Source of the DNA: Nitrososphaeria archaeon
GTDB lineage: Archaea; Thermoproteota; Nitrososphaeria; JACIWG01
Reading direction: 5' to 3'
Length of the DNA: 64,000 nt
NCBI GenBank assembly: GCA_029776065.1
Contig: JARVJP010000011.1
Span: 214,961-278,960 of the forward strand
Part shown: piece by piece, positions 4,183 to 61,800 of the stretch
Layout: each line of letters begins with the position of its first letter
Numbering within the stretch: position 1 is the first letter of the stretch
The notes under the pieces: model-generated
What the model was told of the DNA's origin: nothing
Seen by the model: only the letters and a program-made list of their open reading frames with translations
Databases searched by the model: none
Position numbers and translations under genes: made by a program

Positions 4183-4246
4183 TGATCAACTTTGGCTGAT
4201 AAAAAGGAAGGCTGTAACTATACCGGTTAATTCATGTTGGAAGCTA

Positions 4247-6106: not shown

Positions 6107-6283
6107 ACCTATGTTATTTATTGATAACTTTTAAAAGTTTTATTGAATATATACTTATACTCTAACAATATTCTTTATGGAAAAGTCAAATTCGATTTGT
6201 TTAATTTCAAATTCTATAAAACTTGGATGGTTAAAATTCATAGTATGATAAGGGATATTACCAGCGTTTAAGAAAGGTATTGT

Positions 6284-9185: not shown

Positions 9186-9224
9186 ACTTACTCTTATAAA
9201 TCGATTAAATTTTTAGAATTGAGG

Positions 9225-11624: not shown

Positions 11625-11668
11625 TTATTTTTCTACCCTCAGTCACTTTCCCCAGTTAAAAAATCTTG

Positions 11669-12706
11669 CTATATCTCGCTAATCATACGATATATTTCTT
11701 GGTGTATCTTTAATGCGTCTTCTCTGTCCTTTGGTCCGATCAAAAGCATGTTTCCACTTTTCATAAGGGTTATCTTCACGTCAGGGCTATAGTCAAAGCT
11801 TATAGAGTTCTTTGTAAGTAGCCTTACCTTATATGTGTTAGATATCTTTTGCGCGACCTTTGGCATGTCGAAGTCAAATGTTCTTTTAGGTGTTGTTGTG
11901 TACTTATTCCTTCCACAGACTTCAACTATGCTCACCTCTTTTCTGGTAGTATCTATTATTGACTTGCAAGAGAGGCATTTCTCGTTCTTATAGAATGGTA
12001 TTATGTCCATACTAGGTTGGCTGAGGTCTACAACGCAGAGCTTGTTCTCTAAGAGCCCTTTTCCATGTACAACCAAGTTGACTACCTCGTTCACCTCTAA
12101 GCTGGCAACCAGAGTTACTGCACTAGGTAGTACTCCTACAGTTTCACACGTTAGAGTAGGCTGCCCTATTAGTGATGCGAGATTACATTCTAAGCATCCT
12201 GTTCTAGTTGGCGTAAATGTGCTTAAGTTGCCATATGTCTCAAGAACTCCCGCATAAACATATGGAATCTTATTTAGGATGCTTGCTCTATTGACCGCAA
12301 CCCTTGGGATGAAGCTATCCAACCCATCTACAACAATATCCGCATCCTTCAAGAATTGTATTGCCGTGTCTTCGTTTATTGTCTGTGTTGAAGAGCTGAC
12401 AATCGTGTTTGGGTTGACCTCTTTTATCCTCTCCTCAATTACCTCAACCTTTGGCTTCCCTATATCATTATGGTGAAAGTTGGTTTGTCTATGTATGTTC
12501 GATAGGTCTACTATATCATTGTCGATGATCTTTATAGCGCCGATACCAATGCCTGCCAACGATACTGCGATATGTCCTCCGAGTCCTCCTACACCAGCTA
12601 TGGCAACTCGTGCTCTTTTCAACTTCAGCTGCCCATTCTCACCTATATGTTTAAGGACCAGTTGTCTGGAATACCTGATCTTCTCTTCTGCACTTACTTC
12701 TGACAA
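11669..12706 (-). CDS. ThiF/MoeB/UbaA-family E1-like adenylyltransferase with ~100-aa C-terminal extension
   Basis: RYSRQLVL start, GVGGLGG nucleotide-binding loop, CxxC zinc motifs (TGCLEC...CLSC). Residues ~250-345 form an extra C-terminal domain. Confidence 0.8.
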   Translation of the reverse strand: MSEVSAEEKIRYSRQLVLKHIGENGQLKLKRARVAIAGVGGLGGHIAVSLAGIGIGAIKIIDNDIVDLSNIHRQTNFHHNDIGKPKVEVIEERIKEVNPNTIVSSSTQTINEDTAIQFLKDADIVVDGLDSFIPRVAVNRASILNKIPYVYAGVLETYGNLSTFTPTRTGCLECNLASLIGQPTLTCETVGVLPSAVTLVASLEVNEVVNLVVHGKGLLENKLCVVDLSQPSMDIIPFYKNEKCLSCKSIIDTTRKEVSIVEVCGRNKYTTTPKRTFDFDMPKVAQKISNTYKVRLLTKNSISFDYSPDVKITLMKSGNMLLIGPKDREDALKIHQEIYRMISEI

Positions 12707-12845
12707 TCTGACTGTTACACCACTTGGTCTGATGGTATCTTCTGTGATTTAAAAGATTTCTAAATTAAGTGCTATGTTGATAGAGTCTAATGATCTTTAG
12801 AAACCTCTTTATACCCTATTAAAAGATGGCAAATGAAGAACATAG

Positions 12846-13625
12846 ATGCTGAAGAGGGTAGAAGTCATCCCGTTAAAGTCTCACCTAGTTAAAGAAGGTG
12901 AAGACGTAGTAGGTATCATCATCAAATTACTAAAGAGGAGTAGAATTCGACTTAAAGATAAGGATGTGATCGTGATCGCTGACAAAATACTCGCTATTTC
13001 AGAAGGTAGGATCGTCAACTACGAGAAGACCATTTCAAGCGAAGAAGCGAAGATCCTCTCTGAGAAGTATGCTCTTGAACCTGGATTCGTGCAAATCGTA
13101 TTAGATGAATCCGAAAGAATATTTGGTGGTGTGAAGAGAGCTATACTCTCAATCAATAATGGCATACTAATGGCTAACGCTGGAGTAGACCATAAGAATG
13201 CGCCTGTCGGTTTTGCAGCTTTATGGCCTAAAGACCCTGATGGGACAGCGCGTAGGATTAGGGAAGAGCTTGAAAAGAGAACTGGCAAAAGAGTCGGGGT
13301 AGTAATATCTGACAGTAGAGTTAACCCGATGAGACGTGGAACGGTTGGAATTGCGATAGGCTCATCCGGTATACTGCCTGTAATAGACTGTAGGGGCAAA
13401 ACAGATCTTTTTGGTAAGTCTTTAAAAATTACCTTCATAAACGTGGTCGACGACCTGGCTTGTATGGCTCATATGGTGATGGGGGAGACAACAGAAATGA
13501 CGCCGGTAGTACTCATAAGGAATGCCAACATCATACTTGATGGTGAAGCGACTTCAGAGCAGGTTAAGATCAGTGAAGACGAATGTTTGATCGTTAGGAG
13601 CATTAAGGAGTACTTCGCATCATAG
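12846..13625 (+). CDS. cofE: F420-0:gamma-glutamyl ligase family protein (CofE-like)
   Basis: Length and conserved blocks of the CofE family (...IADKILAISEGR..., ...ANAGVDHKNAP..., ...VVISDSRVNPMRRGTVGIAIG...). Confidence 0.7.
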   Translation: MLKRVEVIPLKSHLVKEGEDVVGIIIKLLKRSRIRLKDKDVIVIADKILAISEGRIVNYEKTISSEEAKILSEKYALEPGFVQIVLDESERIFGGVKRAILSINNGILMANAGVDHKNAPVGFAALWPKDPDGTARRIREELEKRTGKRVGVVISDSRVNPMRRGTVGIAIGSSGILPVIDCRGKTDLFGKSLKITFINVVDDLACMAHMVMGETTEMTPVVLIRNANIILDGEATSEQVKISEDECLIVRSIKEYFAS

Positions 13626-18484: not shown

Positions 18485-20092
18485 TTAATAGTAAATTGGG
18501 GATACTGCTGTTAACAATATCGCATATATGATCGAGTTCCAGATGACTTGCTCGGTGATAGACCTGCTTTTTTGGAACAAATATAGTGAAATTAAGTCAA
18601 AGCTCAGCTGAAGTATTGCGACCATATATAATATAATGGTTAGAAACCCAAGGGTTCCCCCTGAAGTACCGAAGAGCATCATAATGACGATATAGAATAT
18701 TACCAGGCTAGAGACCCTCATCAGCATCGATAATGCTACCTTATAACGTAGCCCCTTTCCTAAAGTGCTTAAAACAGCTCGATAAAATATTTCGTTAAAT
18801 GTGACATAGGGTATTAGAAGGACTGCTAGAACTATAACCATCCCAATTCTATAAGAACTTATTTCTATGTTGAAGAAGTGTTGAAACATTAGATAGTAAA
18901 GTACATATACGACGATCGCTATTATTGCGGAATATAAGATTCTTAGGGGAAGCTTGTCTTTAACAAGGTAAGTGTTTAAGAGCTCTCTAAAACCATTATC
19001 TGTGTCTTTCTTGTGCACATAGAAGACTATGTAGAAAGCTACGATCTGAGAGTAGAAGAAGCCTAGGACGAACGTTGAAACAAACCCTGGAGAGAATAGC
19101 ATGAAAACAACTTGTAGAAGTAGAGTAAACGGGCCTGCAAAAAATGTGCCTGCAAGGTATGTGGGCGCTAGTTTAGAAACGCTAGAAACCTTATCAACCT
19201 TCTCTGGTGGTATCGCTAGATTTTCCCTGATGTCTCTGAGGAGAGGAAATACTAGTAAAAACGCTAAGACCGAGATAAGCAGGAAGAGTGCGAGTTTAAT
19301 ATCGTTTGAGAAGACTAGTTTACCAATTTTGTAAAACTGGCTCACCCACTCTACAGTCTTCTTTACTCCGTTGCTACTATATAGTATTGTTAAATGGTCA
19401 TTTAAACCGCTTATGTAGAGTTCCCTAGCATTGTTTTGTTCGAAGTCTCCATAAGTCACACCTACCTCAGGGTGTTCCACCTCTGTTATGTTCTTGAAAG
19501 CGCTTAAGGCTGTCTCTATGCTTGTGATCTCGTCATTCGCCCCGTTCAAAACAAGTACATTTATCTTTGAATCTTTATCTAGAAAGTCTGTGGTAGGTGT
19601 AGCGCCAATTATTACTAGACATTTTATTCTGCTATCGTTCTTTGCTAGCGATTGAGCATAATAAGCACCTATGCTATGGCCTATAATTGCTATTGAATTT
19701 AGATTTGCACCATATTTTAACCCAACTTCTAAGATCTTGCTAAAGTCGCTGTATATCAGCGTCTGGTTGAAAGATAAGTAAGAGCCACTTTTACCATGCC
19801 CCCTGTTATCATAAGCTATTGTAAGTATTCCATTGTTGGCGAGTTCACCTGCTATCATGTCCATCATTTCAGAACTTCCTCCGAAACCATGCATTAAGAT
19901 CGCAAGAGGTTTAGGTCCGTTTGCTTTAGGAATATGTGCTATGTAGAACAGTTTCTCCCCATCTTCAATATCCACTGTACCTACATTCGTTGAATAACCA
20001 CTGTTTATGTAGGAAATAGCAACATTAAATGCAATGATTAAAGTAATAGTTATTGAGACAAAGAGTAGCCTTTTGGATTTTACTTTTTGCAC
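18485..20092 (-). CDS. Alpha/beta-hydrolase domain fused to a C-terminal polytopic membrane domain
   Basis: N-terminal TM/signal, HGFGG oxyanion region, nucleophile elbow GHSIGA (GxSxG). After ~250 aa, 7-8 predicted TM helices to the C-terminus. Confidence 0.65.
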   Translation of the reverse strand: MQKVKSKRLLFVSITITLIIAFNVAISYINSGYSTNVGTVDIEDGEKLFYIAHIPKANGPKPLAILMHGFGGSSEMMDMIAGELANNGILTIAYDNRGHGKSGSYLSFNQTLIYSDFSKILEVGLKYGANLNSIAIIGHSIGAYYAQSLAKNDSRIKCLVIIGATPTTDFLDKDSKINVLVLNGANDEITSIETALSAFKNITEVEHPEVGVTYGDFEQNNARELYISGLNDHLTILYSSNGVKKTVEWVSQFYKIGKLVFSNDIKLALFLLISVLAFLLVFPLLRDIRENLAIPPEKVDKVSSVSKLAPTYLAGTFFAGPFTLLLQVVFMLFSPGFVSTFVLGFFYSQIVAFYIVFYVHKKDTDNGFRELLNTYLVKDKLPLRILYSAIIAIVVYVLYYLMFQHFFNIEISSYRIGMVIVLAVLLIPYVTFNEIFYRAVLSTLGKGLRYKVALSMLMRVSSLVIFYIVIMMLFGTSGGTLGFLTIILYMVAILQLSFDLISLYLFQKSRSITEQVIWNSIIYAILLTAVSPIYY

Positions 20093-20217
20093 AAAAAAGT
20101 CTTTTCTGCGCTATATTTATCCATTGCTATACCAACACCTTTATTCACCGTCTCACATATGACAATTTCCACAAGCCAGCTTAAAGGAAAGACTTATTTC
20201 TTTAATAGAATGTCTTT

Positions 20218-20709
20218 TTGTGTATGATAAAGTTAAAGGTTGTTAAAATAGATGTGCCAGAAGGGTTGAATGTAATTCTAGGCGCTACCCACTTCATAAA
20301 ATCGGTTGAGGACGTTTACGAAGCTGTGGTTAATAGTGTCCCTAGTGTGAAGTTCGCTGTCGCTTTCTGTGAGGCCTCAGGGAAGAGGCTAATTCGGAGT
20401 GAAGGGAATGATGAAGAGTTAATCTCTTTAGCGCAAAAGAACGCTATGAACCTGTCATGTGGGCATACCTTTATCGTTTATCTAAAGGACGCGTACCCAA
20501 TTAATGTACTCGAGAAGATAAAGAACGTCTACGAAGTCTGTTGCATCTTCGCTGCGACCGCTAACCCCTTGCAAGTGATAGTGGCTGAAACAGAACAAGG
20601 GAGGGGTGTACTAGGTGTTATAGACGGTTTCACATCCTTAGGTGTTGAATTAGAGAAAGATAGAGCAGAAAGAAAGGATTTCTTAAGGAAGATGGGTTAC
20701 AAGCTCTAG
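20218..20709 (+). CDS. Adenosine-specific kinase family-like small protein (archaeal DUF; tentative)
   Basis: ~160 aa archaeal-type protein with conserved GHTF / ILGATHFIK blocks I associate with PF04008-like proteins. Assignment from memory only. Confidence 0.35.
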
Positions 20710-21731
20710 CCTCTTATCTTTTTTAATTTATATGCAAACCTCCTTGCTTCTTCTAAGCTCTTACCTTGCGCCTCTAAATTTATCTCGTTTAGTATAGAGC
20801 TTGAAAAACTTAGCTTATTTTCTGTAACCTTGTTCTTTCTTAGGTCTAGTTCTTCTATAATCTTCGGATTAAATTGTGATACTTTTTCCATCGAACATAC
20901 TGTATGGTATAATTCTCTTACCGAATCCGTGTACCACTTGGTTGAAATAATATGCGCATTTAACGGCATTTTCTGTTCTATTGCGAACTGGCATTTTTTG
21001 AGAAGTTCATTTACTTTAATGTCGGAGAGGAGAATGGGCTTTTTTGAAAAATCTGTTGGTGGCCGGTTTTCAAATTCATAGAAGTCAGTCATCCTCATAA
21101 AAAGTGTCAATGTTGAAAATACCCTTTTAAAGGAAGTTGTTGTAGCATATTCCAATCCTAGGAAGTGAGCAATGCTTACAAAGAACTCAGAACCTTTGAA
21201 TAACGGGTTCTCTCTGATCTGCTGGATCAGATGGCTTGGTGAGCTGAGTTCTTTATTTAAAATATTCAGCGCAACAACTGCGTCGTAGCCGAGGACTAAG
21301 AGCCAGAATGCTGTTGAATAGAGTGCTTGTAAGCCATAAGCTTCCTCTGCATATGTTAAATGCTTTAGTAGCTTTAGGGTTTGGTCCTCGAATGCTTGTG
21401 AAAAGACTTCTTTCTCTTTCTTCAGTAACCCTTCTTTAAGTGATGCGAGGAAGAGGTTAGGGTCATTAAGTATCTTAGCCTTTAATAATGCAATATTAAT
21501 TTCATAATTTGTTCTGTCCTCAAGCTCCTGATGCGTACGATAGTAGATGTTTAAAATTATATCGTCTATTTGGACCGGTATCTGCCCTGTCACATTGTTA
21601 GTGAACACTATCACATCATACCCACAAACCGGCCATTGCAACTTACCGACTTTACAGCCTACTAAAATCGAGGGATCACTAGCGTGTTTCTTGATTAAGT
21701 ATTTATTTACTATCCCTACTTGTTGGCTCAC
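20706..21731 (-). CDS. Hypothetical protein (341 aa), possibly nucleotidyltransferase-like N-terminus
   Basis: Long ORF with consistent coding character. No motif I can confidently place. Confidence 0.4.
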
Positions 21732-21866: not shown

Positions 21867-22820
21867 ATGAGTGATGATAAATCTTCTAGTGGAAGTTTAA
21901 CTTATTTAACTGAAAAATGCCCAAGATGTGGGCGTGCTAAACTAATACTTGATAATGCTCGAGGCGAAATATTCTGTAGCCATTGTGGATTCGTTGTTAG
22001 AGAGAAGCTTGAAGAAGCTGGCCCAGAATGGCGTGCCTTCTCTAAAGAGGAAAAGGAGAGCCGTAGTAGGACTGGTGTTCCATCATCGTTAGCCATGCAT
22101 GATATGGGCCTGTCAACAATCATTAGCCAACTTGATAAAGATGCTTCAGGTAAAAGTATTTCTTCGGCTATGAAGACTACGTTTGACAGGTTGAGAACTT
22201 GGGATGGAAGGAGCCAAGTCCACGAGCCTGTAGACCGTAACCTTAGACAAGCCTTCAGTGAACTCGATAGACTTGCAGATAAGCTAAGTGTGGGCGACGC
22301 TGTAGTTGAACGAGCTGCTTATATCTACAGGCAAGCTCTTGAAAAGGGGTTGGTTAGAGGTCGTTCTATTTCTGCCTTAATCGCTGCGTCACTATACGCT
22401 GCATGTCGAGAAACTGAGACTCCACGTACTCTAAAGGATGTGGGTGCAGCAAGTAACATCAAGAAGAAGGATATTGCAAGATGCTACCGTCTTCTTGTTC
22501 GTGAGTTAGATAAGAAGATGCCTGTTGCCGACCCGCTTAAAACGGTTTCTAGGATCGCTAGCGCTGCTGGGTTATCTGAGAAAACTAAACGTCGAGCTTT
22601 AGACATTATTACTAGGACAAAGGAGAGCCTCTCTTCAGCTGGAAAGGACCCTATGGGCCTCGCGGCAGCTGCCCTCTACGTATCGTGTGTTTTAGAGGGT
22701 GAAAATAAAACACAGAAGGATGTTGCCGAAGCAGCTGGTGTAACTGAAGTAACAATAAGAAATAGGTATAAGGGATTAAGGAACATATTAACACCCGATG
22801 AACTAAGAGTTGTCGAGTGA
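21867..22820 (+). CDS. tfb: Transcription initiation factor IIB (TFB)
   Basis: N-terminal zinc ribbon CPRCG...CSHCG, B-reader/linker, two cyclin-fold repeats. Confidence 0.95.
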   Translation: MSDDKSSSGSLTYLTEKCPRCGRAKLILDNARGEIFCSHCGFVVREKLEEAGPEWRAFSKEEKESRSRTGVPSSLAMHDMGLSTIISQLDKDASGKSISSAMKTTFDRLRTWDGRSQVHEPVDRNLRQAFSELDRLADKLSVGDAVVERAAYIYRQALEKGLVRGRSISALIAASLYAACRETETPRTLKDVGAASNIKKKDIARCYRLLVRELDKKMPVADPLKTVSRIASAAGLSEKTKRRALDIITRTKESLSSAGKDPMGLAAAALYVSCVLEGENKTQKDVAEAAGVTEVTIRNRYKGLRNILTPDELRVVE

Positions 22821-28945: not shown

Positions 28946-29464
28946 TTAATTGTTGTGCCTGTCTCCATTTTTGTTTTTTAGGTCGATTTCCATGACGTAG
29001 GCGTCTTCTCCATCATTATAATACCCTCTAATCCTTTGAGCGACATGGTACCCCAGCTTTTTGTACATGCTTATTGCAGGATCATTTGAAACTCTTACTT
29101 CAAGGAAAGACGTCTCACACCCATGCTTCTTAAACTCCTCTATGGCTCGTTGTAAGAGGGCTGTTGCTAGCCCTTTCCTTCTATGCTCTTCAAGAACTGC
29201 GATGGAGATTATATGCCCCTTTTTTACTATTTGAGGTTTTGTTTTAAAAGAAAAACCATACTCTATTCTACCCATATGGTAGGCTACAACTCTTCCATTA
29301 TACTCGATAACTAAGAATGTGTCAGGATTAGTTGAAAATATTGAGGTATAAAACGAGTGCGTATAGTGTTCGGGTAAGGCGACACTGTTAACGTTGATAA
29401 CCCCATCGATATCTTCCTCTCTTGCCTTCCTCAGAGTGTAACCATATGGGATTAGCATCTGCAT
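28946..29464 (-). CDS. GNAT N-acetyltransferase (RimI / archaeal N-alpha-acetyltransferase-like)
   Basis: Acetyl-CoA binding motif A: IISIAVLEEHRRKGLATALL. ~170 aa. Confidence 0.85.
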   Translation of the reverse strand: MQMLIPYGYTLRKAREEDIDGVINVNSVALPEHYTHSFYTSIFSTNPDTFLVIEYNGRVVAYHMGRIEYGFSFKTKPQIVKKGHIISIAVLEEHRRKGLATALLQRAIEEFKKHGCETSFLEVRVSNDPAISMYKKLGYHVAQRIRGYYNDGEDAYVMEIDLKNKNGDRHNN

Positions 29465-29513
29465 ACTTTACGCATAGTTTATTATGTAGATAAGTTTTAA
29501 AGCTGCCCCATTA

Positions 29514-30626
29514 TTGGCTTCTCAGATGCAAAGTTCTGATGGGCAAAACATTCTAGGCTATGAAGAAATTACCAAAGAAGTTAGTAAGAACTTCACAATC
29601 ATAGATTACTTTCTACGCTCTGATGGAGCGGTAGAATATAAGGTCATGAAGACCGAAAACATAAAGGAAAATTTTCTATCCCTTTGGTCTACTTTAAAGA
29701 AGAGTGGTTACATCCCTGTTCTCAGGAAAGGTGAACCATATTTAACGCTTTATGTAGCCCCTTATATTAAAAGGAAAAAGTATAGTTACAAAATGGGGGT
29801 CACACTTCTCGCGGCAACTATGGCATCTCTGTTAATAGATGGTTGGGTGAGGGCTTCATCTTCTACAAGTCAAAAGATATTCCCAGAGTGGAATCCTATA
29901 GTTGTGACTTTATCTTATGCTCTGGCATTTATAGGCATACTCGGTTTGCATGAGGTAGGACATCTAGTTATGTCTAGGAAGCGTGGGCTATCTTCAACAA
30001 TGCCCTACTTTATACCGGGAATTCCAGGCTCAGGCGTTCCAACATTTGGGGCTGTTATATTTGCTACAGAACCTATGGTAAATAAAGATACACAGTTTGA
30101 TATCGGTCTTTTAGGGCCAATTTCAGGATTTATTGTAGCTGTTTTTGTCAGTTTTCTTGGAGTTTTAACCTCAGTTCCTATGACTTTGGAGGAGTTCACT
30201 AAACTCTTTGGAGCAGGAGAAACGTCTTTTGTCGATGTCCCATTAATAATGAACCTTATGTTGATTGGAACGGGAAAGGTGTCGGCATCACAGCAAATGG
30301 TCGTAATACTCTCGCCTCTTGCTTACGCAGCATGGTTCGGTTTTCTAATAACATTCTTGAACACCCTTCCTGCTTGGCAACTTGATGGAGGTCATATGTC
30401 TCGTAGTGTGCTTAATGAGCGGCAGCAGAGAATTGCCACTTTGCTATCTGCTGTTATAATGGCGCTCTTCGGCTTCCTTCTAATGGCTATGCTGATTTTA
30501 TTTTTATCATTTGGGCAGAATGAGATAAAGCCTTTAGATGAAGTTTCACCGCTTTCTAGGTCGAGGAAGCTCGTCTACGGACTAGTGTTGGTGGTCACTA
30601 TTTTATGCGCCCCAATTCCTCTTTAA
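29514..30626 (+). CDS. Site-2 protease family (peptidase M50) membrane metalloprotease
   Basis: HEVGHLV (HExxH) in a TM helix and NTLPAWQLDGGHM (LDG motif). Confidence 0.85.
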   Translation: MASQMQSSDGQNILGYEEITKEVSKNFTIIDYFLRSDGAVEYKVMKTENIKENFLSLWSTLKKSGYIPVLRKGEPYLTLYVAPYIKRKKYSYKMGVTLLAATMASLLIDGWVRASSSTSQKIFPEWNPIVVTLSYALAFIGILGLHEVGHLVMSRKRGLSSTMPYFIPGIPGSGVPTFGAVIFATEPMVNKDTQFDIGLLGPISGFIVAVFVSFLGVLTSVPMTLEEFTKLFGAGETSFVDVPLIMNLMLIGTGKVSASQQMVVILSPLAYAAWFGFLITFLNTLPAWQLDGGHMSRSVLNERQQRIATLLSAVIMALFGFLLMAMLILFLSFGQNEIKPLDEVSPLSRSRKLVYGLVLVVTILCAPIPL

Positions 30627-31768
30627 GAATGTATTAGTAGTGTCTTATCCCCTCTGGCTAAAACGGTTATTTTTTTCCTTTTTTCCTGATCCTTTTCAAT
30701 CAAGTAGTTTACTGCGTCGTTGCCGGTTGTATAACTTTTATAACCTAATCTTTTCTCGATAAAAGACTTTGGTAGTGTCGTCAAGAATCCTAGGTCGAAT
30801 TGCGCTCCGTAGTTTAACAAATAGTAAAGGTTTTCTATCCCTTCAATGTACTGGTTTCTTTTGATACTTTCTTTTACTTCGAAACCTCGATATATGTATT
30901 GAGTAATAGCTTCTGAGCCAAGGCCACCGCTCGATTCTGTTAGAACGATCACTGACGCTCCTTCCTCGAGAGCTGGTAAAATGTTCCATAGCGAGTTAAG
31001 GGATTGATCGAAAGTTGAACATTTACTTTCCTCACCAGGTGTAACTACAGCTAATGGTATCTTCAAACCAACCTTCTTTGCTGAATACTTCAAAAGTTCT
31101 TGGGTTGCTGATTTATGGGCTTCAAGGACGTTCCCTGTAAAGACTTTACTGAAGTCGTCTCTACCAGGAAGGACCTCGATAGCTTTAACTTCCTTAAGTT
31201 CCTCTGCTACTCTTCCAGCAAACCAGCTCGCCGCAGTATCATTAGCTGGGTTAGGCTTTAACTCAGTCTCTCTTTTTAAGGCCTCAAACTTTAGGTTATC
31301 CCCTAAAAATTTTATTAAAGCTGTTGGCCCCCCTGAAAACCCGAAAAGCGGGTCTAAACCAACAGATGAAATGAAATAGAGATCTTTTCTGGAAAAGATG
31401 GTTGGCGACTTTAATACTACTCCATCAACTATTCCAATAGAGTGTTTCTCTTCATCTATCTTCGTAAAGGTGCACTGTGTTTCCTTGACCTCCCTTTTAT
31501 ATTGTCTTAAAATTTGTTCATTCGAGTATATATTGACTTTACTTGGTGAAACAAATTGGATTAGATGTCGTATGAACTTAACTGTCGATAACTCGTAGTC
31601 CCCTGCTAGAACATGTATTTCATCCATCTCCTTTAATTCCTGTAGTTCCTTGTTAATCACATCTACTATTTGGTCTGGTAAGGGGTCTTCTATGACTTGG
31701 GCAAGACGCTCCCTTCGGATCTCTATGGCGATTTCGACCTTTCCATATCTTAGCCAGATTTCAGGCAT
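30623..31768 (-). CDS. LarA-like (DUF2088, lactate racemase family) protein, apparently lacking the cofactor-tethering lysine
   Basis: N-terminus IWLRYGKVEIAIEI resembles LarA IYLPYGKTDTLTAEV. DPLFGFSGGPTALIKFLG aligns with LarA EPHFFAGFSGGRKSILPG but has L for His and PT for RK. Confidence 0.5.
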   Translation of the reverse strand: MPEIWLRYGKVEIAIEIRRERLAQVIEDPLPDQIVDVINKELQELKEMDEIHVLAGDYELSTVKFIRHLIQFVSPSKVNIYSNEQILRQYKREVKETQCTFTKIDEEKHSIGIVDGVVLKSPTIFSRKDLYFISSVGLDPLFGFSGGPTALIKFLGDNLKFEALKRETELKPNPANDTAASWFAGRVAEELKEVKAIEVLPGRDDFSKVFTGNVLEAHKSATQELLKYSAKKVGLKIPLAVVTPGEESKCSTFDQSLNSLWNILPALEEGASVIVLTESSGGLGSEAITQYIYRGFEVKESIKRNQYIEGIENLYYLLNYGAQFDLGFLTTLPKSFIEKRLGYKSYTTGNDAVNYLIEKDQEKRKKITVLARGDKTLLIHS

Positions 31769-31872
31769 GTTCTACCCACAACTAGTAAGCGCATTTAATA
31801 AATCCTTACTTTATTTTACTCTTTTCGTTTCCTGTTAAAGGTTTTATCTTAGAGGTGGGATACTAGTGTCAT

Positions 31873-32523
31873 ATGGTGAACAAGGCGGTTAAGATTTTAT
31901 GGTTAAACGAGTACAGCACCATAAAGGTGACCTATAATAATATATCATTAGTCACTGATCCTGCTCAGACCCTGTCTTCTAGCATAGGAGAAGTAAACTA
32001 CATACTTATCTCGCATGAGCACTACGACCACTTGGATGTTCGACTGGTGAACGAGCTCTCAAAGTATTCCCCAATGGTCATATCCGACTCGGAGTCAGGG
32101 AGTAGATTAAGAAGGTACATCCCAAAGGAGCGACTTAGAATTATGAGACCTGGGAACATTTACAAAGACTCTAATCTATCTATTACAGCTTATAAGAGCG
32201 TTCACCCCGCAGTTAACCCCGTCACTTATTTGATCGAATACTCTGATTGCGTTAAACTGTTTTATGCAAATGGCTCACTACTTACAGGTGAACATTCTCA
32301 ACTTGCAAAATTGAATGTTGACCTGGCTTTTGTGCCCATTGGTATCGCTCCAGGTGCCTCACCTAAGAGTGGTAGTGAGATGGTTCACGTGATTCAGCCT
32401 CGAGTCGCTATTCCTTTGCATGGTACTCGTTCTAATGATTTCAAATCTATAGTGGAGGCTAGAGACCCTAATATTAGAGTTCAAATAATCCCTAGAGATG
32501 TGGAAGTGGTGGTGGAGTTATGA
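31873..32523 (+). CDS. Metallo-beta-lactamase fold hydrolase
   Basis: SHEHYDHL (HxHxDH) motif. Downstream His (..AIPLHG..). Confidence 0.8.
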   Translation: MVNKAVKILWLNEYSTIKVTYNNISLVTDPAQTLSSSIGEVNYILISHEHYDHLDVRLVNELSKYSPMVISDSESGSRLRRYIPKERLRIMRPGNIYKDSNLSITAYKSVHPAVNPVTYLIEYSDCVKLFYANGSLLTGEHSQLAKLNVDLAFVPIGIAPGASPKSGSEMVHVIQPRVAIPLHGTRSNDFKSIVEARDPNIRVQIIPRDVEVVVEL

Positions 32524-33149
32524 ACTGGAATGAGGAGAAGTTACATTTGGTAAAAGATTTAGCCCGATCACTGGTTAAGGCACAGGCTCTTAAGTTCGGT
32601 GTTTTCACATTAACAAGTGGAAAGATGAGCAGTTATTACATAGACTTGAGGCTGGTTCCAAGTTATCCTTCAATTTTCAAGAAGATTATAAGCATGTTCT
32701 CTAGAGTTGTTGTTGAAGAAGTTGGCTTATCAAACTTCGATCTAATCTGTGGTATACCTACTTCCGGTCTTGTCTTTGCCTCTGCTGTCGCTTTCTCTTT
32801 AGAGAAACCTTTGATCTATGTCCGTAAGGAGGTTAGAGGTCACGGTACTCAGAAGAATATTGAAGGTTTACTTAAACCAGGGCAACGTGTATTATTGATC
32901 GACGATCTGATTACAACCGGTTCTTCTTTGATCACTGCTAAGGAGGCTGTGACCTTAGAGGGTGGTGAAGTATCAGATGCCGTTGTTCTTGTTGACCGTG
33001 AGGAAGGCGGGATCCAAAAGTTAAAAGAATTTGGGATAACTGTACATTATGTATCAAAGGTTACAGAAATAGCGAAAGAACTTTATCAAAATAATGTTAT
33101 CACTGACGAAGAATATAAAGCTGTTCTTAAACAGGTAGGGACAAAGTAA
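32520..33149 (+). CDS. pyrE: Orotate phosphoribosyltransferase
   Basis: PRPP-binding motif VLLIDDLITTGSS. Type-I PRTase length ~200 aa. 4-nt overlap with upstream gene. Confidence 0.75.
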   Translation: MNWNEEKLHLVKDLARSLVKAQALKFGVFTLTSGKMSSYYIDLRLVPSYPSIFKKIISMFSRVVVEEVGLSNFDLICGIPTSGLVFASAVAFSLEKPLIYVRKEVRGHGTQKNIEGLLKPGQRVLLIDDLITTGSSLITAKEAVTLEGGEVSDAVVLVDREEGGIQKLKEFGITVHYVSKVTEIAKELYQNNVITDEEYKAVLKQVGTK

Positions 33150-33156
33150 GGTTCTA

Positions 33157-33717
33157 TCATCGATATACCATTAACTTCATTTGTTCAAGTGTTTGATGTA
33201 AGTTAGCAACCGCTTCATATACTTCTTGCTCCTTCTTCGCCCCTGTACACACCAGCTTTCCACTAGCAAACAACAGAATAACTGTCTTCGGTTGAAGCAT
33301 TCGGTGTATAAGCCCTGGAAACTGTTCTGGTTCATACATAGACCGGGGTAACTTGATTGCTGCTTCCTCTAGGTCAACCCTACCACCTAAACTTGCTGAA
33401 GCAACGATATTCTGAATCTCGATAACTGGCTCGTTTGTGATCTCAATTCCACCATCCTTAAGCATCTTAACGACCGTGTGTACTGCTTTGAACGCTTGCT
33501 CCTCGGACTTTCCACCCGTACAAACCATCTTCCCAGAGCTAAATATTAGGGTAGCAGTCTTTGGTGTTTTCAACCTAAAGACTAAACCTGGGAACTGATC
33601 CGGTCTATATTCAACGTTTGTAAACCTTCTCGTTATTTCTATCAAATTAATGTTCTGGTTAACAGAAGCTGATGCGACAACGTTTTCTATGCTTACAATT
33701 CGCTTGCCCTTTGACAT
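33157..33717 (-). CDS. tbp: TATA-box binding protein
   Basis: Two direct repeats of the TBP fold (..IENVVASASVNQNINL.. and ..IQNIVASASLGGRVDL..). Confidence 0.95.
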   Translation of the reverse strand: MSKGKRIVSIENVVASASVNQNINLIEITRRFTNVEYRPDQFPGLVFRLKTPKTATLIFSSGKMVCTGGKSEEQAFKAVHTVVKMLKDGGIEITNEPVIEIQNIVASASLGGRVDLEEAAIKLPRSMYEPEQFPGLIHRMLQPKTVILLFASGKLVCTGAKKEQEVYEAVANLHQTLEQMKLMVYR

Positions 33718-35564: not shown

Positions 35565-37496
35565 GTGCAAAAAATGAGAGGAATTTCTCGCACAATATTA
35601 GCTGTTGCAGTGATCGTCTTAGTAGTTATAGTAGGTGCTGTTGCGGTCTTAATGCAACCTCCTACACCAACTATTACCACAACAACCACTACCACCACTG
35701 CTACTACTACAACTGCTACTACTTCCACGACAATCACAACAACTACCGCTACCACCACTACAGCCACTACTACAACTGTCACAACTTCGCCAACAACTAC
35801 GACTACAACGATAAAGCCTCCAAACCCTGACACACTTGTTCAAGAAACGATCGGTGAGCCTGATTACGTTGACCCAGCTGTAGACTATGAAACCGCTGGG
35901 GGAGAGATCATAATGAACGTATACGAAACATTGATGTGGTATGATGGTGAAAGTGCTACAAAGGTGATTCCATGGCTCGCAGAAAGTTACCAGATGTCTG
36001 CTGATGGCAAGAGTTACACATTCACACTCAGAAAGGGTATCAAGTTCCATGATGGTACGCCATTTAATGCGAAAGCTGTCAACTATTCTATTGTAAGAGC
36101 AATACTAATAGCTGACCCTAATGGACCAGCGTGGATGCTCGGGCCATTAAAGGGCGCAGAAGAGTTGATGTATAGTATCCAAGATGGTGTTGCAACACAG
36201 GATGATGTAGCTGCATGGCTTGCCTCTAAGCCAATAGAAGTACTTGACGAGTATACAGTTAGAATGAACCTAGACTACCCGTACTCTCCTTGGCTTTCTG
36301 TTCTAGCATATACTGTTACAGCGATAGTCTCCCCAACTTATGTTGAGGCACATGGAGGTATCGTAGTCGGCGAGCATAATGAATGGATGGATAGGCATGC
36401 TGAAGCAGGAACAGGGCCTTATATTCTAAAGTCCTGGGAACCAAATGTCCTGACATTGGTCAGGAACGACGCGTACTGGGGTGGACCCAAAGGCAATATC
36501 AAACCTGTTCTGAAGACCGTGATCATAAAAGGTGTTGCTGATGCGAATACTAGACTATTAGATCTATTAAAGGGGGACGCTGACTTTGCCTACGTGCCTG
36601 TAACTCACATAGACCAACTGATAGATATGACTACTTGGTTTAACGAAAAGAAGATCGTGGTCAAGCCAGAAGTAGCTGACAAGGTCCGAGTAACAGGACC
36701 ATATGAGACGTTCAACCTGGACTTTATCGCCTTCAACCTGAATATCAAAGATGAGATAACAAAACAACCTGCAGCCTTCCAACCATTTAGGGATATAAGA
36801 GTGCGAAAAGCCTTCGTATATGCTTTCGACATAGACCAATACCTTAGAGATGTGGTGAAATATTTCGCTATACAACCAAATGGACCCGTACCCAAAGGAA
36901 TGTTCGGATACAATCCAAGTATACCTACACAACAGTATAATTTAACAAAGGCTAAAGAACTCCTACTACAAGCTGGTCCAGATCTTGGATTTAGCCCACA
37001 GAATCCTAAGACCATGACATTATACTACAACACAGGAAACTTAGCCCGTGAAAAAGCAGCCCTTCTAATCGCAAGCGCGATCAACTCACTTAACGTAGGT
37101 TTGGTGATTCAAGTCGTACCACTTGATTGGCCAGCCTTCCTTGCAAAGCAGAGGGCAAGAGCGTTACCATTCTTCGTTCTAGGTTGGGCACCAGACTATG
37201 TTGATCCAGATGACTACCTTATACCATTCGGTCACGGTCAGAAAGGCACTTTCCCAATAGTAATTGGGTACAATAACCCTGAATTAAACACCTTGATTGA
37301 GCAACAAGCAGTTGAAGCAGATCCTGTGAAGAGGCAAGCGATAATAGACCAGATAGTGAACACTTTGAACTCAGAGTACATCTACCTTTGGACCGCTCAA
37401 GCAACTGCACGCCATGTTGAAAGAACATGGGTAAAAGGTTGGTACTATAACCCAGCTTATCCAGGCAACTATTTTGCAACAATATCTAAAGGGTGA
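35565..37496 (+). CDS. ABC transporter substrate-binding protein, family 5 (oligopeptide/dipeptide), N-terminally anchored with poly-Thr linker
   Basis: N-terminal TM, ~50-aa Thr-rich low-complexity linker, then full SBP_bac_5-like domain. Followed by permease and ATPase genes. Confidence 0.9.
   Translation: MQKMRGISRTILAVAVIVLVVIVGAVAVLMQPPTPTITTTTTTTTATTTTATTSTTITTTTATTTTATTTTVTTSPTTTTTTIKPPNPDTLVQETIGEPDYVDPAVDYETAGGEIIMNVYETLMWYDGESATKVIPWLAESYQMSADGKSYTFTLRKGIKFHDGTPFNAKAVNYSIVRAILIADPNGPAWMLGPLKGAEELMYSIQDGVATQDDVAAWLASKPIEVLDEYTVRMNLDYPYSPWLSVLAYTVTAIVSPTYVEAHGGIVVGEHNEWMDRHAEAGTGPYILKSWEPNVLTLVRNDAYWGGPKGNIKPVLKTVIIKGVADANTRLLDLLKGDADFAYVPVTHIDQLIDMTTWFNEKKIVVKPEVADKVRVTGPYETFNLDFIAFNLNIKDEITKQPAAFQPFRDIRVRKAFVYAFDIDQYLRDVVKYFAIQPNGPVPKGMFGYNPSIPTQQYNLTKAKELLLQAGPDLGFSPQNPKTMTLYYNTGNLAREKAALLIASAINSLNVGLVIQVVPLDWPAFLAKQRARALPFFVLGWAPDYVDPDDYLIPFGHGQKGTFPIVIGYNNPELNTLIEQQAVEADPVKRQAIIDQIVNTLNSEYIYLWTAQATARHVERTWVKGWYYNPAYPGNYFATISKG
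35690..35815 (+). repeat. Low-complexity ACN-codon (poly-Thr) coding repeat within SBP gene
   Basis: Run of ACT/ACA/ACC/GCT codons encoding TTTTTTTTATTTTATTSTTITTTTATTTTATTTTVTTSPTTTTTT. Generates spurious antisense ORFs (35552-35833, 35649-36050). Confidence 0.9.
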
Positions 37497-37524
37497 TTAC
37501 ACCCTTTTCCTCTTTTTCTTTTAG

Positions 37525-38565
37525 GTGATTTTTTTGAAATTATATGAATATTCTATAAGGAGAATATTCTTGTTGATTTTTGTGTTATTAGGTGTAACCA
37601 TTCTTACCTTTTATTTGTCAAGGATAGTTTTGAACCCTCTAGGTGCATACGTCACAGAGAGAACTAGACCTGAAGCAATACCTGCTATTGAAAAGAGGCT
37701 TGGTTTAGATAAACCTTTCTATATCCAATATATAATATATTTGCAAGACTTGGTGACTTTCAACTGGGGTTGGTCTAGGGTAGCGCATATGCCTGTTATT
37801 GAAGCTCTTTTTTATCGTTTTCCCGCAACCGTTGAGCTTGCAATAGCATCATTTATTATCATAATTCTGGTCGGTGTTCCTTTAGGTATTATAAGTGCAT
37901 TAAAGAATAACTCTGTTGTAGATCACGCTATTAGGATTTTCTCTTTAACGGGTATATCTATTCCGGTCTTCTGGCTCGCTTTGACATTGCAATATTCGTT
38001 CTCATACCTTCCAAAGGTCGCTGGCCTACCTAGTCTTCCTTCAAATGGGCGGGTTGACGCCCTTTTATATCAACAGTATCCTGTTAATAGGATAACAGGC
38101 TTGATGATATTCGATTCACTGATACAAGGCAACTTTATAATAGCATCTGACGCTCTGCTACATCTAATACTTCCGGCCATGACATTGGCTTTTCTGAGTA
38201 TAGGGGCTGTAACAAGGGTTGCGCGTTCAAGTATGCTCGAAGTCCTACGCCAAGACTACATATCAACAGCTAGAGCCTACGGGTTACCTGAACGTATGGT
38301 GATATACAAATACGCTCTAAAAAACGCTATGATCCCTGTAACGACGTTAAGCGGTCTTTTGTTCGGCGGGTTATTAGCTGGGGCTATAATAACTGAAAGC
38401 ATTTTCGCGTTCCCAGGTATGGGCCAGCTGACAGTATTCGCCATATCTTCAAACGATTCATACACTATTATGGCGTTTACGGTCTTAGCCTCATTCATTT
38501 ATGTGTTAATAAATCTCTTAGTGGATATAGTGTACGCTAAGCTCGATCCAAGAATTAAGTATTAA
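37525..38565 (+). CDS. ABC transporter permease (OppB-like)
   Basis: Polytopic. Conserved EAA-like region ..STARAYGLPERMVIYKYALKNAMIPV... Confidence 0.85.
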   Translation: MIFLKLYEYSIRRIFLLIFVLLGVTILTFYLSRIVLNPLGAYVTERTRPEAIPAIEKRLGLDKPFYIQYIIYLQDLVTFNWGWSRVAHMPVIEALFYRFPATVELAIASFIIIILVGVPLGIISALKNNSVVDHAIRIFSLTGISIPVFWLALTLQYSFSYLPKVAGLPSLPSNGRVDALLYQQYPVNRITGLMIFDSLIQGNFIIASDALLHLILPAMTLAFLSIGAVTRVARSSMLEVLRQDYISTARAYGLPERMVIYKYALKNAMIPVTTLSGLLFGGLLAGAIITESIFAFPGMGQLTVFAISSNDSYTIMAFTVLASFIYVLINLLVDIVYAKLDPRIKY

Positions 38566-38566
38566 G

Positions 38567-39445
38567 GTGATGCCATTGAAAAGTAGACAAACCAGAATGT
38601 TTTTGATGGACCTAAAATTTGCTTTAACTCTGCTAAGAAAGAACAAACTAGTAGTTTCTGGTTTTGTTATGGTGCTCTTCTTCATTTTCCTAGCTCTTTT
38701 CGGCGACTTTATTGTCGACCCAAACATCGCGAAGAGCGTTGATTACCCAAACGCTCTCAAGCCTCCTTCATGGGAGCATCCCTTTGGTACGGATGATAAT
38801 GGTAGAGATATAGTGGCCATGGTAGTACTCGCTGCTAAATACGATTTAGCTATAGCACTATCTGTTATACTGGCGTCAATTGGCGTAGGAATACTGGTCG
38901 GCTCGGTGTCTGGTTACTTTGGAGGAATTATTGATGAAGTAATCATGAGAATCACTGATATATTTTTGGCTTTCCCGGGATTGGTTTTAGCAATGGCGAT
39001 CGCCACTGTTTTAGGAAGGTCCTTTACAAACTTGATGCTAGCTTTGATCATAGTCTGGTGGTCAGGATATGCTAGAATCATGAGAGGTCAATTTATTTCT
39101 GAACGAGAAAAACCATACGTAGCTGCTGCTAAAATACTTAGCGTGCCAAGTTGGAGGATAATATTCAGGCACATTCTCCCAAACGCTATATACCCTATGC
39201 TCGTTGTTTTAACAATGGATATGGGTGGTGTGATATTGACTGCAGCGGGGCTGAGCTTTATTGGCCTAGGTCCATCACCTTTTGAGCCAGAGTGGGGTTC
39301 TCTTGCTTCCAGAGGCGCGGTATACCTCTTTCAAGCGCCTTGGATAATATTCTTCCCAGGTATAATGATCTTATTTGCATGTTTAGGCTTTAATCTTGTA
39401 GGTGATGGGTTAAGAGACGTGTTAGACCCGAGGCTTAGAAGGTGA
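38567..39445 (+). CDS. ABC transporter permease (OppC-like)
   Basis: Polytopic. ..AAAKILSVPSWRIIFRHILPNA.. EAA-like loop. Confidence 0.85.
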   Translation: MMPLKSRQTRMFLMDLKFALTLLRKNKLVVSGFVMVLFFIFLALFGDFIVDPNIAKSVDYPNALKPPSWEHPFGTDDNGRDIVAMVVLAAKYDLAIALSVILASIGVGILVGSVSGYFGGIIDEVIMRITDIFLAFPGLVLAMAIATVLGRSFTNLMLALIIVWWSGYARIMRGQFISEREKPYVAAAKILSVPSWRIIFRHILPNAIYPMLVVLTMDMGGVILTAAGLSFIGLGPSPFEPEWGSLASRGAVYLFQAPWIIFFPGIMILFACLGFNLVGDGLRDVLDPRLRR

Positions 39446-39449
39446 AAAG

Positions 39450-40433
39450 ATGCTGCTCAGTGTAAGGGACTTGATAGTAGAATTCTACACCTATAGAGGT
39501 ATAGTCCACGCGTTAAACGGTGTAAGTTTTGATCTAGATAAGGGAGAAGTTTTAGGACTCGCTGGTGAAACTGGGAGTGGAAAATCTGTAACTGCCTTCT
39601 CTATACAAAGATTACTTCCGGCGAATGCTAAGATTGTGTCAGGCAAGATCGTATTTGATGGAGTAGACCTGCTCGAGCTAAGTGAGGAAAAGATGCGTGA
39701 GATTAGAGGTCAAAGAATTGCAACGATCTTCCAAGACCCTCATACCTACCTTAACCCCGTCTTTAAGATAGAAAGACAGTTTTTAGATGTTCTAAAGTAT
39801 AATGACCCAGAAATCAAGGCTTTAGAGAATAAAAAGGAGGCTGAGAGAATCGCTTTCGAGAAGGCTGTTGAAATGTTGAAAAAGGTCAAGATGCCTGCCC
39901 CTGAACGCGTTCTTAAGATGTATCCTCACGAACTCAGTGGTGGGATGAAGCAAAGAGTCCTACTTGCTATGGCTTACTCTCTGACTCCAGACCTAATAAT
40001 AGCTGACGAGGCCACAACTGCTCTAGATGTAACTATACAAGCTCAAGTCTTGGAAATAATGAAAGAGCTTCAGAAAGAGAAGAACTTGTCCGTGCTACTC
40101 ATCACCCACGATTTAGGTGTTATTGCTGAAAATTGTCAAAAGGCTGCGATAATGTACGCTGGGAGAGTGGTTGAAATTGGGGACGTAAAGAAAGTTCTTA
40201 TTTCTCCAAAGCATCCTTATACACAGGGGTTACTTAAGGCACTACCTAGAACAGATAAGGAAGTTGAACTGGTAGGTATTCCTGGGACGGTGCCAGATTT
40301 GGTGAACCCACCAACCGGTTGTGCATTTAACTTGCGATGCCCCTATGCTAAAGAAATTTGTAGAACGAAGGTTCCTCCTTACACGTTAGAGGAGGGTTCT
40401 ACGGTTGCATGCTATCTTTATGGTGGGAAGTAA
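39450..40433 (+). CDS. Oligopeptide ABC transporter ATP-binding protein (OppD-like)
   Basis: GETGSGKS Walker A, LSGGMKQRV signature, LIIADEATTALD Walker B. Confidence 0.9.
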   Translation: MLLSVRDLIVEFYTYRGIVHALNGVSFDLDKGEVLGLAGETGSGKSVTAFSIQRLLPANAKIVSGKIVFDGVDLLELSEEKMREIRGQRIATIFQDPHTYLNPVFKIERQFLDVLKYNDPEIKALENKKEAERIAFEKAVEMLKKVKMPAPERVLKMYPHELSGGMKQRVLLAMAYSLTPDLIIADEATTALDVTIQAQVLEIMKELQKEKNLSVLLITHDLGVIAENCQKAAIMYAGRVVEIGDVKKVLISPKHPYTQGLLKALPRTDKEVELVGIPGTVPDLVNPPTGCAFNLRCPYAKEICRTKVPPYTLEEGSTVACYLYGGK

Positions 40434-41398
40434 TGGTGACTGAAGTAGTAAAAATAGAAAATCTTACAAAACACTTCCCTATAGTAGGAGGGATTCTTCA
40501 AAAGACAATAGGGTACGTCTACGCTGTGAACGATGTAACAATGTCCGTTCGCGAAGGTGAAACACATGGCCTAGTAGGTGAATCTGGTAGCGGGAAGACA
40601 ACTGTTGGTAGAATTATCGTGAAACTAACTAACCCAACATCGGGTAGAATTATCTTTGATGGCGAAGACATCACTAGAGTAAAAGGTGAAGCGCTAAGAA
40701 ACTATAGAAGAAAGGTCCAAATGGTCTTTCAGGATCCTTACGCATCTATGAACCCTAGGATGACCGTGAAGAGTGCCTTACTTGAAGTTATGAAGATTCA
40801 TTCGATGCATAAGGGCTCAGAGTATGAATATGCAACTAAGTTGATGGAGAGAGTCGGAATGAGTGAAGAACACCTCTATAGGTATCCACACGAGCTCTCC
40901 GGTGGTCAAAGACAGAGGGTTGTAATAGCAAGGGCTCTCAGTGTAGAACCAAAGTTCATCGTGTTAGATGAGCCTACAGCATCGTTAGATGTGTCTGTTC
41001 AAGCCCAAGTCCTTGATCTTTTAAAGGAATTACAGAAGCAGTATAGTTACTCTTACCTACTGATTACCCACAATTTAGCTATAATCAAGTATATAAGTCA
41101 CAGAACTACTGTGATGTATAGAGGGGTATGGGTTGAAACTGCACCCACACAAGAGCTCTTCAAAAACCCTCAACATCCATACACCATCGCTTTAATGTCG
41201 GCTGTACCTGTACCCGATCCAACATTGAGAAGAGAAAAGATAATCCTGAAAGGGGAACCACCGAATCCGATCGAAAAGGTAGTAGCTTGCCCGTTCCAAG
41301 ATAGATGCCCCTATGTTATGGACGTCTGTAGAGAAAAGATGCCGCCAGACACCGATCTAGGAAGTGAACATTTGGTGAGATGTTGGCTAAGAGCGTGA
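40409..41398 (+). CDS. Oligopeptide ABC transporter ATP-binding protein (OppF-like)
   Basis: [29 protein letters not shown]. 25-nt overlap with upstream ATPase gene. Confidence 0.9.
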
Positions 41399-61565: not shown

Positions 61566-61800
61566 ACTTAAACCATTTAAATAATATTAACTTATCTATA
61601 TGTCTCTTATTAAAAACTTACAGAACGTCTTACTTATCTCCTATGATATGAGTATAAACTTGGGCGCAAGATATCAATAAGAACTTTGGTCAAATCAATA
61701 TAGTTTCGGTTGTCTAAAACATCGCTACGTTATACTTGTGAAAGCCTCTATTCTTATATCAAAAAGCTTAAAAACCTACTACAAGGAGAGATTAAATTAC

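Follow-up and report, generated by a model that had tools for sequence, protein, structure and literature searches.

The stretch of DNA considered here, hereafter referred to as the window, comprises 64,000 nt of contig JARVJP010000011.1 (GenBank:GCA_029776065.1, positions 214,961 to 278,960) from a Nitrososphaeria archaeon and carries on its minus strand a gene (bp 30623–31768) whose product resembles the lactate racemase LarA. An earlier note, made from the sequence alone, had claimed that this protein lacks the lysine to which, in LarA, the cofactor, a nickel-pincer nucleotide (NPN), is covalently bound, and that it looks repurposed for a non-NPN function or for a binding-only or regulatory role. 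The question raised by the locus is thus whether the gene encodes a LarA homolog and, if so, whether the product is still an NPN enzyme or has been turned to another use. We found that the protein is a true LarA homolog belonging to LarA homolog (LarAH) Group 12 (Desguin et al. 2020, Sci Rep 10:18123, PMC7583248), that its residues speak against a canonical racemase, and that its gene occupies the chromosomal position of canonical enzymes in Bathyarchaeia; as to function, we lean towards a protein that works independently of NPN.

Relationship of the window protein to LarA

An open reading frame was confirmed at exactly bp 30623–31768 of the minus strand, encoding 381 aa, and the protein was identical to NCBI MEM3403176.1 (QXJ17_01290, "hypothetical protein") from the 796-kb contig JAVZCQ010000001.1 of the Nitrososphaeria metagenome-assembled genome (MAG) GCA_038874315.1. 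Taken as a single sequence, it matched neither Lar_N (PF09861) nor LarA_C (PF21113) in Pfam; its best NCBIfam match was the LarAH6 malate racemase (MAR) model (E 4.5e-9, 35.4 bits, in the C-terminal half), far below the 500-bit cut-off of that model, with no LarA/LarAH equivalog cut-off being reached, and its match to the PDB (6d6z, E 5e-5) was weak and also in the C-terminal half. For the family, we used an alignment of 45 Group 12 homologs (A1) and a wider set of 172 members. Among the 45 homologs, Pfam detected LarA_C in 22 (best E 7.8e-6) and Lar_N in 2 (E 0.059), and the profile built from A1 matched Mar2 at 2e-15 and the LarA apoprotein 2yjg across residues 48–368. Alignment by hhalign with five canonical LarAs gave a Prob of 99.73% and an E of 8.9e-27 over 362 aligned columns. 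The AlphaFold2 model of the window protein had a pLDDT of 93.2 and a pTM of 0.90, and upon comparison with the PDB by Foldseek the best 18 matches all belonged to the LarA family (E about 1e-22), with TM scores of 0.78–0.82 against 5huq, 6c1w and 9eia (5huq_A, TMq 0.80; 9eia_B, 0.82), the first unrelated match appearing only at E 1e-3. Identity to the solved LarA structures was 13–16%. Because the fold match and the profile-profile alignment agree, the window protein is a true LarA homolog across both domains. The kinship to LarA asserted in the earlier note is thereby confirmed, the structure prediction that it had suggested pointing to no different family, and the doubt expressed in 2020 about the homology of Group 12 is settled, which is new here.

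Group 12 as published consists of Nmar_0290, NKOR_01295, NSED_01400, CENSYa_1687 and Ngar_c34640 (= LarAH12). These proteins were noted in that paper to lack the catalytic and NPN-binding residues and were inferred not to use NPN; the residue loss and the non-NPN inference for the group are therefore not new here. The window protein aligned end-to-end with Ngar_c34640 (27% identity, E 2e-37) and Nmar_0290 (26% identity, E 3e-30). It bears the Group 12 signature of Table S3 of PMC7583248, namely D at the position of His174, T at that of Lys184 and no His at that of His200, and RimI, PyrE and a Zn-protease are encoded within bp 28946–33149 of the window, in line with the Group 12 context of Table S1 (RimI 100%, PyrE 100%, Zn-protease 80%). 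The host is likewise a Thaumarchaeota/Nitrososphaeria MAG. On these grounds, the window protein is classified as a new, divergent member of this published and functionally orphan group. Functional data on Nmar_0290 or Ngar_c34640 were sought in the literature, and none were found in the main texts. Annotation based on arCOGs labels the Group 12 gene "nickel-dependent lactate racemase" (arCOG02046), and Nitrosopumilus members are often named "transcriptional regulator" at NCBI; we found no support for either name in this analysis.

Cofactor and catalytic positions

The LarA sequences of L. plantarum, T. thermosaccharolyticum and I. pallida and that of Mar2 were rebuilt from HMMER output, with the published key residues falling at the correct numbers, and were aligned with 189 relatives, intermediates included, by MAFFT; hhalign was run without intermediates. 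By every alignment method, the position of Lys184, the thioamide tether to NPN, was occupied by Thr149 at the end of a DPLFGFSGGPT block (bp 31322–31354, minus strand). This column held T, V, S, A or I in A1, and Lys was present in none of the 172 members, so that the replacement of GGRK by GGPT described in the earlier note was upheld. The position of His174 was occupied by Asp139 of the same block, a residue found in 92% of the family. MAFFT with intermediates, hhalign without them (ungapped) and the published Table S3, in which D is listed, all agreed on this register; moreover, Bathyarchaeal intermediates grade from HPxxG[FY] to DPxxG[FY], and one family member (P0008) retains YHPLFGF. A gapped register equating His174 with Leu141 was obtained from a single HMMER alignment only, and was ruled out by MAFFT, hhalign and Table S3. 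The earlier statement that the His of the xPHF motif is replaced by Leu was thus two residues out of register. The profile alignment with the catalytic positions marked, which had been suggested as a check, therefore bore out that neither the Lys nor the His is conserved but corrected the residue standing in place of the His.

The losses go beyond those noticed earlier. In the region equivalent to that of His200, which completes the square-planar Ni coordination, the window protein reads KFEALKRET (bp 31265–31291, minus strand), with L164 or K165 at the His200 position depending on the method; in the family this column held F, Y, L or I or was variable, and His was found in no member. The His108 loop is deleted. 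The LarA motif SDxTR, in which Asp72 binds the ribose and Arg75 the phosphate, corresponds to HVLAGDYELSTVK (bp 31577–31615, minus strand) with D57 and L60 at these two positions, and both columns are variable across the family. Because Lys184, His200, His108 and His174 are gone, and Asp72 and Arg75 are gone at the family level, a canonical NPN-dependent racemase is excluded for the window protein as judged from its residues.

Conserved replacement residues

Residues conserved at 85% or more in the 172 members were Asp139, Tyr307, Gly310, Glu312, Trp261, Asn262 and an N-terminal Met-Pro-Glu-x-Trp..Tyr-Gly signature, along with Gly143, Glu278, Gly282 and Gly284, which are structural positions conserved throughout the superfamily. 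Tyr307, Gly310 and Glu312, contained in YIEGIE (bp 30833–30850, minus strand), were 95–98% conserved; their counterparts in LarA lie on the loop and the first turn of helix alpha14 (T353/D356/W358 region), a region that faces the substrate in LarA and Mar2 (region as defined in PMC7583248). The segment TFDQSLNSLWN (bp 30983–31015, minus strand) is equivalent to helix alpha11 of LarA (Tyr294/Gln295/Lys298 region); Asn stands at the Lys298 position, and W261 and N262, one turn beyond, were 90–93% conserved in the family. The loop ESSGGLG (bp 30917–30937, minus strand), containing E278...G282.G284, is held in common with canonical LarAs (AEC..G.G). These patterns suggest that the former active-site positions have been remodelled and fixed to a new set of residues, and not relaxed, a point that is new here.

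In the N-terminal signature MPEIWLRYG (bp 31742–31768, minus strand), M1, P2, E3, W5, Y8 and G9 were invariant in A1 and 91–97% conserved across the 172 members, Y8 and G9 being conserved superfamily-wide; the Bathyarchaeal relatives carry MVEVWLPYG. It was also observed that Pro2 (codon 2, bp 31763–31765), invariant in A1 and present in 91% of the 172 members, is replaced by Val2 in these relatives, that excision of the Met would expose Pro2 as the N-terminal residue, and that a gene for a RimI-type N-acetyltransferase is a constant neighbour.

Distribution and evolutionary origin

A word-index search yielded 95 clusters, all from Nitrososphaeria, and an exhaustive profile search retrieved 1248 representatives at E<=1e-3, 117 of them at E<=1e-30. 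A relative is encoded in no fewer than 459 species-representative genomes, whose listed titles are all Nitrososphaeria, Thaumarchaeota or Thermoproteota; this breadth is new here. Group 12 is thus retained under purifying selection and is not decaying; a pseudogene or decaying relic was ruled out by this number of species genomes together with the invariant residues. The suggestion that the protein was repurposed rather than left to decay is supported by the same genomes and by the strong conservation at the former active-site positions.

Weaker profile matches beyond the family proper were Bathyarchaeal proteins of 405–428 aa with the N-terminus given above. In one of them, P0229, which matches Mar2 at E 1e-92, each of the six key residues is in place. 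In others, the residues at positions 72/75/108/174/184/200 read DQKHKY (P0219), GN-HEH (P0228), PRRHDR (P0258) and GPVDAL (P0260), and the scores against the MAR/LarAH6 model step down through 444, 315, 262 and 214 bits to the 35 bits of the window protein. In a neighbour-joining tree, Group 12 was nested at the crown of the Mar-type (Mar2) archaeal branch; since ladders in such trees can overstate the branching order, only the nesting is relied upon.

Organization of the locus and positional orthology

The LarAH gene is convergent with a gene for a Peptidase_M50 protein (RseP/S2P-type membrane metalloprotease; bp 29526–30626, plus strand), beyond which lies the most persistent neighbour, a RimI-type acetyltransferase gene of the Gcn5-related N-acetyltransferase (GNAT) type (bp 28946–29464, minus strand). 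On the other side, across a 104-nt spacer, a metallo-beta-lactamase (MBL)-fold hydrolase gene (bp 31873–32523, plus strand) is divergent from it and is followed by the conserved neighbour encoding a PyrE-type phosphoribosyltransferase (bp 32520–33149, plus strand). A palindromic TTAA (bp 30623–30626) supplies the stop codons of both the LarAH and the M50 genes, and convergent 3′ overlaps of 4–30 nt with M50 recur in Nitrosopumilus (L001), in L006 and in the Bathyarchaeal loci L010 and L094. The genes of the degenerate Bathyarchaeal proteins P0237 and P0260 are also convergent and overlapping with M50 and have the same M50/GNAT flanks.

The locus of the canonical P0229 has the order PyrE-MBL / LarAH ... 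M50-GNAT, and 79 of the 80 metagenomic loci of the P0229 type (L098–L176) encode canonical DRHHKH proteins. A GNAT gene was situated within 300 nt downstream on the same strand in 66 of the 67 canonical loci with enough flank, typically 70–140 nt downstream of the canonical Bathyarchaeal Mar-type LarAHs, and in many of the canonical Bathyarchaeal loci PyrE-MBL is upstream and divergent, as in the window. Group 12 therefore lies in the same chromosomal slot (PyrE-MBL / LarAH / GNAT) as the canonical Bathyarchaeal enzymes, with graded intermediates between the two, an observation that is new here. None of the 79 canonical metagenomic loci had the M50 protease in its flanks, and an M50 gene lying between a LarA-like gene and GNAT was confined to loci with a degenerate LarA-like protein (L010, L094 and Group 12).

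At L011, in one Bathyarchaeon, M50 precedes GNAT, but four carboxylase genes, for a biotin ligase, a carboxyltransferase, a PYC/OADA subunit and a biotin carrier, are inserted between the canonical LarAH and M50-GNAT (bp 8376–12859 of that locus); this insertion is a hint that the ancestral enzyme had its place in a malate/oxaloacetate context. In three distant lineages (L004–L006), the gene for the TATA-binding protein (TBP) adjoins the Group 12 gene block, and in Nitrososphaeraceae the Group 12 gene lies between TBP and rpoH-rpoB-rpoA. The name "transcriptional regulator" at NCBI, itself unsupported, may derive from this neighbourhood.

Occurrence of larB, larC and larE

Pfam calls and tblastn with Lactobacillus and archaeal LarB, LarC and LarE detected no larB, larC or larE in the 64-kb window, in agreement with what had been said earlier, and by tblastn none were found near any of about 90–95 Group 12 loci. 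However, no larB, larC or larE was found within 8 kb of the 79 canonical Bathyarchaeal loci either, including 19 loci for which 6 kb or more of sequence was available on each side. Since the canonical orthologs are likewise without nearby lar genes, the absence of these genes near Group 12 is neutral evidence.

Two observations nevertheless bring Group 12 or its relatives close to lar genes. First, according to the supplementary tables of PMC8397731, the MAG Alpha_AOA_ma1 of a pelagic ammonia-oxidizing archaeon (AOA) has a contiguous NifS-LarE-LarC-Mdh-LarB cluster (genes _107 to _111) and its sister MAG Alpha_AOA_ma2 has at least the NifS-LarE pair; the sole LarA-type gene given there for these two MAGs is that of Group 12, between RseP and PyrE, and in that paper canonical LarA is reported for three sediment clades only, which have larB and larC as well. 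In the literature searched, we found no discussion of this cluster of pelagic AOA, in which a malate/lactate dehydrogenase gene (Mdh) lies and for which a canonical user is missing. Second, P0258, which is without Lys184, His200 and His108, adjoins genes scoring above the NCBIfam cut-offs for LarB, LarC and LarE at loci L093 and L097 of Bathyarchaeota from hydrothermal-vent metagenomes. The order in L093 (bp 1444–6845) is LarE and LarC, a divergent LarB, a 139-aa ORF, P0258 and GNAT, and it is found also in L097. With 16 sequences in its cluster, P0258 is no one-off pseudogene. No lar genes were found at a second Lys-less locus (L096). In a search with Bathyarchaeal LarC, the 120 best of the matches were all Bathyarchaeia-like; one of these, labelled Nitrososphaerota (L095), belongs to a larB/larC/larE cluster without a LarA nearby.

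Possible function of Group 12

We regard as somewhat probable that the window protein is an NPN-independent protein of LarA fold, its cleft rebuilt for a small ligand, and that its role is a housekeeping one bound up with the RimI-type acetyltransferase. The ancestor shared by Bathyarchaeia and Nitrososphaeria would have had an NPN enzyme of the Mar2 type, similar to malate racemase, from which Group 12 came by vertical descent, keeping the two-domain fold and the chromosomal position while losing the whole canonical cofactor and catalytic apparatus. We infer that it no longer binds NPN in the manner of LarA and is no 2-hydroxyacid racemase. A new fixed set would have taken over, composed of Asp139 in place of His174, Tyr307/Gly310/Glu312 on the alpha14 loop, Trp261/Asn262 on the Lys298 helix and the invariant N-terminal Pro-Glu-Ile-Trp. 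Because the former active-site positions are fixed to new residues, the interdomain cleft has most likely been rebuilt as a cofactor-independent carboxylate/aromatic site, which would bind a small ligand and possibly convert it by acid-base chemistry, and the housekeeping role would be coupled to the RimI-type GNAT gene, a companion since before the residues were lost.

Several points weigh against this interpretation. That the conserved residues line one pocket is presumed from their sequence equivalence to LarA. The negative assays of LarAH12, which was insoluble and, once refolded, inactive in seven assays (PMC7583248), are weak evidence. The persistent linkage to GNAT fits a non-catalytic partner role equally well. 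Finally, pelagic AOA with Group 12 and no canonical LarA keep NifS-LarE-LarC-Mdh-LarB, and P0258 clusters with bona fide larB, larC and larE; by these two observations, some link of Group 12 to NPN may remain.

The partner role corresponds to an alternative which we hold to be unlikely but worth serious consideration, namely that Group 12 is a dead pseudoenzyme retained only for a non-catalytic role, structural or regulatory, as a partner of the M50 intramembrane protease, of the RimI-type N-acetyltransferase, or of both. It would account for the loss of all catalytic residues, for a LarAH-GNAT linkage that is older than this loss and has outlived it, and for an M50 gene that is convergent and overlapping in Group 12 and the degenerate Bathyarchaeal forms but absent at the 79 canonical loci; the inactivity of LarAH12 is also as expected. 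However, the best-conserved family-specific residues (D139, Y307, E312, W261 and N262) are at former active-site or substrate positions and form no evident patch on the surface, a pattern that suits a ligand site better. Furthermore, convergent genes are not co-transcribed, and synteny in a housekeeping region (TBP, PyrE, RLI, Trm5) may simply reflect slow rearrangement.

Clearly less probable is a lasting link to NPN, in which the remodelled site of Group 12 would hold NPN, or a biosynthetic precursor of it, without a covalent bond and the protein would act as an enzyme, carrier or sensor. The lar clusters of the Group 12-only pelagic MAGs and the position of P0258 next to verified LarB, LarC and LarE speak for it, as does the presence of an Mdh gene inside the AOA lar cluster when the nearest characterised relatives are malate racemases; in addition, about 15% of genomes are recognised as having larBCE without a recognisable user. 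On the other hand, all known NPN contacts are gone, including the Ni-ligating His and the ribose- and phosphate-binding Asp and Arg, LarAH12 was inactive when given NPN, the sediment AOA with larB and larC also carry a canonical LarA, and the Lys-less locus L096 is without lar genes. The form of this idea in which Group 12 and the degenerate Bathyarchaeal proteins such as P0258 both bind NPN or a precursor non-covalently, using neither Lys184 nor His200, strikes us as more doubtful still. If true, it would explain why pelagic AOA without canonical LarA keep NifS-LarE-LarC-Mdh-LarB, and would identify a long-sought non-canonical NPN-binding protein in archaea that are among the most abundant on Earth. 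The possibility raised in 2020 for Groups 12, 13 and 16, that they are no LarA homologs or resemble LarA in motifs by chance, could appeal to the single sequence without a Pfam match and the low identity to solved LarAs, but is refuted by the full-length fold match (TM 0.8, E 1e-22, against 1e-3 for the next unrelated match), the hhalign result (99.7% across 362 columns), and the unbroken series of intermediates with positional orthology to the canonical loci, and its probability is negligible.

The interest of the locus lies in a family that is single-copy and near-universal in Nitrososphaeria, including globally abundant ammonia oxidizers, and that is misnamed in the databases. A single conserved locus is the seat of a canonical ortholog, of intermediates in graded steps and of the form that has been stripped completely, so that evolution from enzyme to non-enzyme can be traced, and the presence of larB, larC and larE in Group 12-only genomes bears on the identity of NPN users where canonical LarA is missing. 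The evolutionary series and the co-occurrence with larBCE are the most worthwhile parts, and the importance of the whole is modest.

Other features of the window

The window also contains two oligopeptide-type ABC transporter operons (bp 404–6106 and bp 35565–41398), a gene for a 799-aa S8/PA-domain peptidase (bp 9225–11624), and genes for TFIIB (bp 21867–22820) and TBP (bp 33157–33717). No ammonia-oxidation genes were found in the 64 kb, and from its gene content the host looks like a peptide-scavenging member of the Nitrososphaeria rather than an ammonia oxidizer. A product of about 305 aa (bp 61738–62718, plus strand) weakly matches PF02931, the domain that binds the ligand in pentameric channels of the Cys-loop type. 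A heliorhodopsin gene (PF18761) at about bp 63578–64000 runs off the end of the window; on the source contig (L009, bp 20059–20879), it was apparently called as two pieces (214 and 58 aa), and a frameshift or an assembly error is possible.

Comparison with known systems

The window protein has the fold of L. plantarum LarA (PDB 5HUQ, 6C1W; TM 0.80) at 15% identity and is without its catalytic and cofactor residues. The single-histidine LarAHs, LarA_Sp and LarA_Bw (PDB 9Q3J, 9Q2U), resemble Group 12 in being LarA homologs without the catalytic His174, but they are octamers of about 500-aa subunits in which the Lys (seen to carry NPN covalently) is kept, as are the His that binds Ni, His108 and Asp72; loss of one His is thus compatible with NPN use, whereas the window protein has lost all.

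The nearest characterised enzyme is the Mar2/LarAH6 malate racemase (PDB 6D6Z, 7S91), which is also the best sequence and NCBIfam match of the window protein. The two have in common the two-domain LarA fold, the E..G.G loop, Asn302 and the [FY]xxG motif ahead of alpha14. Mar2, however, has D, R, H, H, K and H at positions 72/75/108/174/184/200 and uses NPN, whereas the window protein functionally has none of these, for D57 sits at the Asp72 position of Mar2 but in a column that is unconserved in Group 12.

With the published members of Group 12, the window protein shares the N-terminus MPEIWLxYG, the D and T substitutions, the lack of His200, the RimI/PyrE/Zn-protease synteny and a thaumarchaeal host. 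It differs from them in that 1) identity is only 26–27%, 2) its host is a deep, apparently peptide-scavenging Nitrososphaeria MAG and not a cultured ammonia oxidizer, 3) the loop SGG is kept (DPLFGFSGGPT), as in Nitrososphaerales, whereas Nitrosopumilales have DGLFGYETxxT, and 4) an MBL-fold hydrolase gene lies between the LarAH gene and PyrE. The canonical, uncharacterised Bathyarchaeal LarAHs of the P0229 type belong to the same Mar-type branch and, apart from Val2 in place of Pro2, have the same N-terminal signature as the window protein, but none of the six key residues is missing from them, and they exceed the window protein in length by about 40 residues, the His108 loop included.

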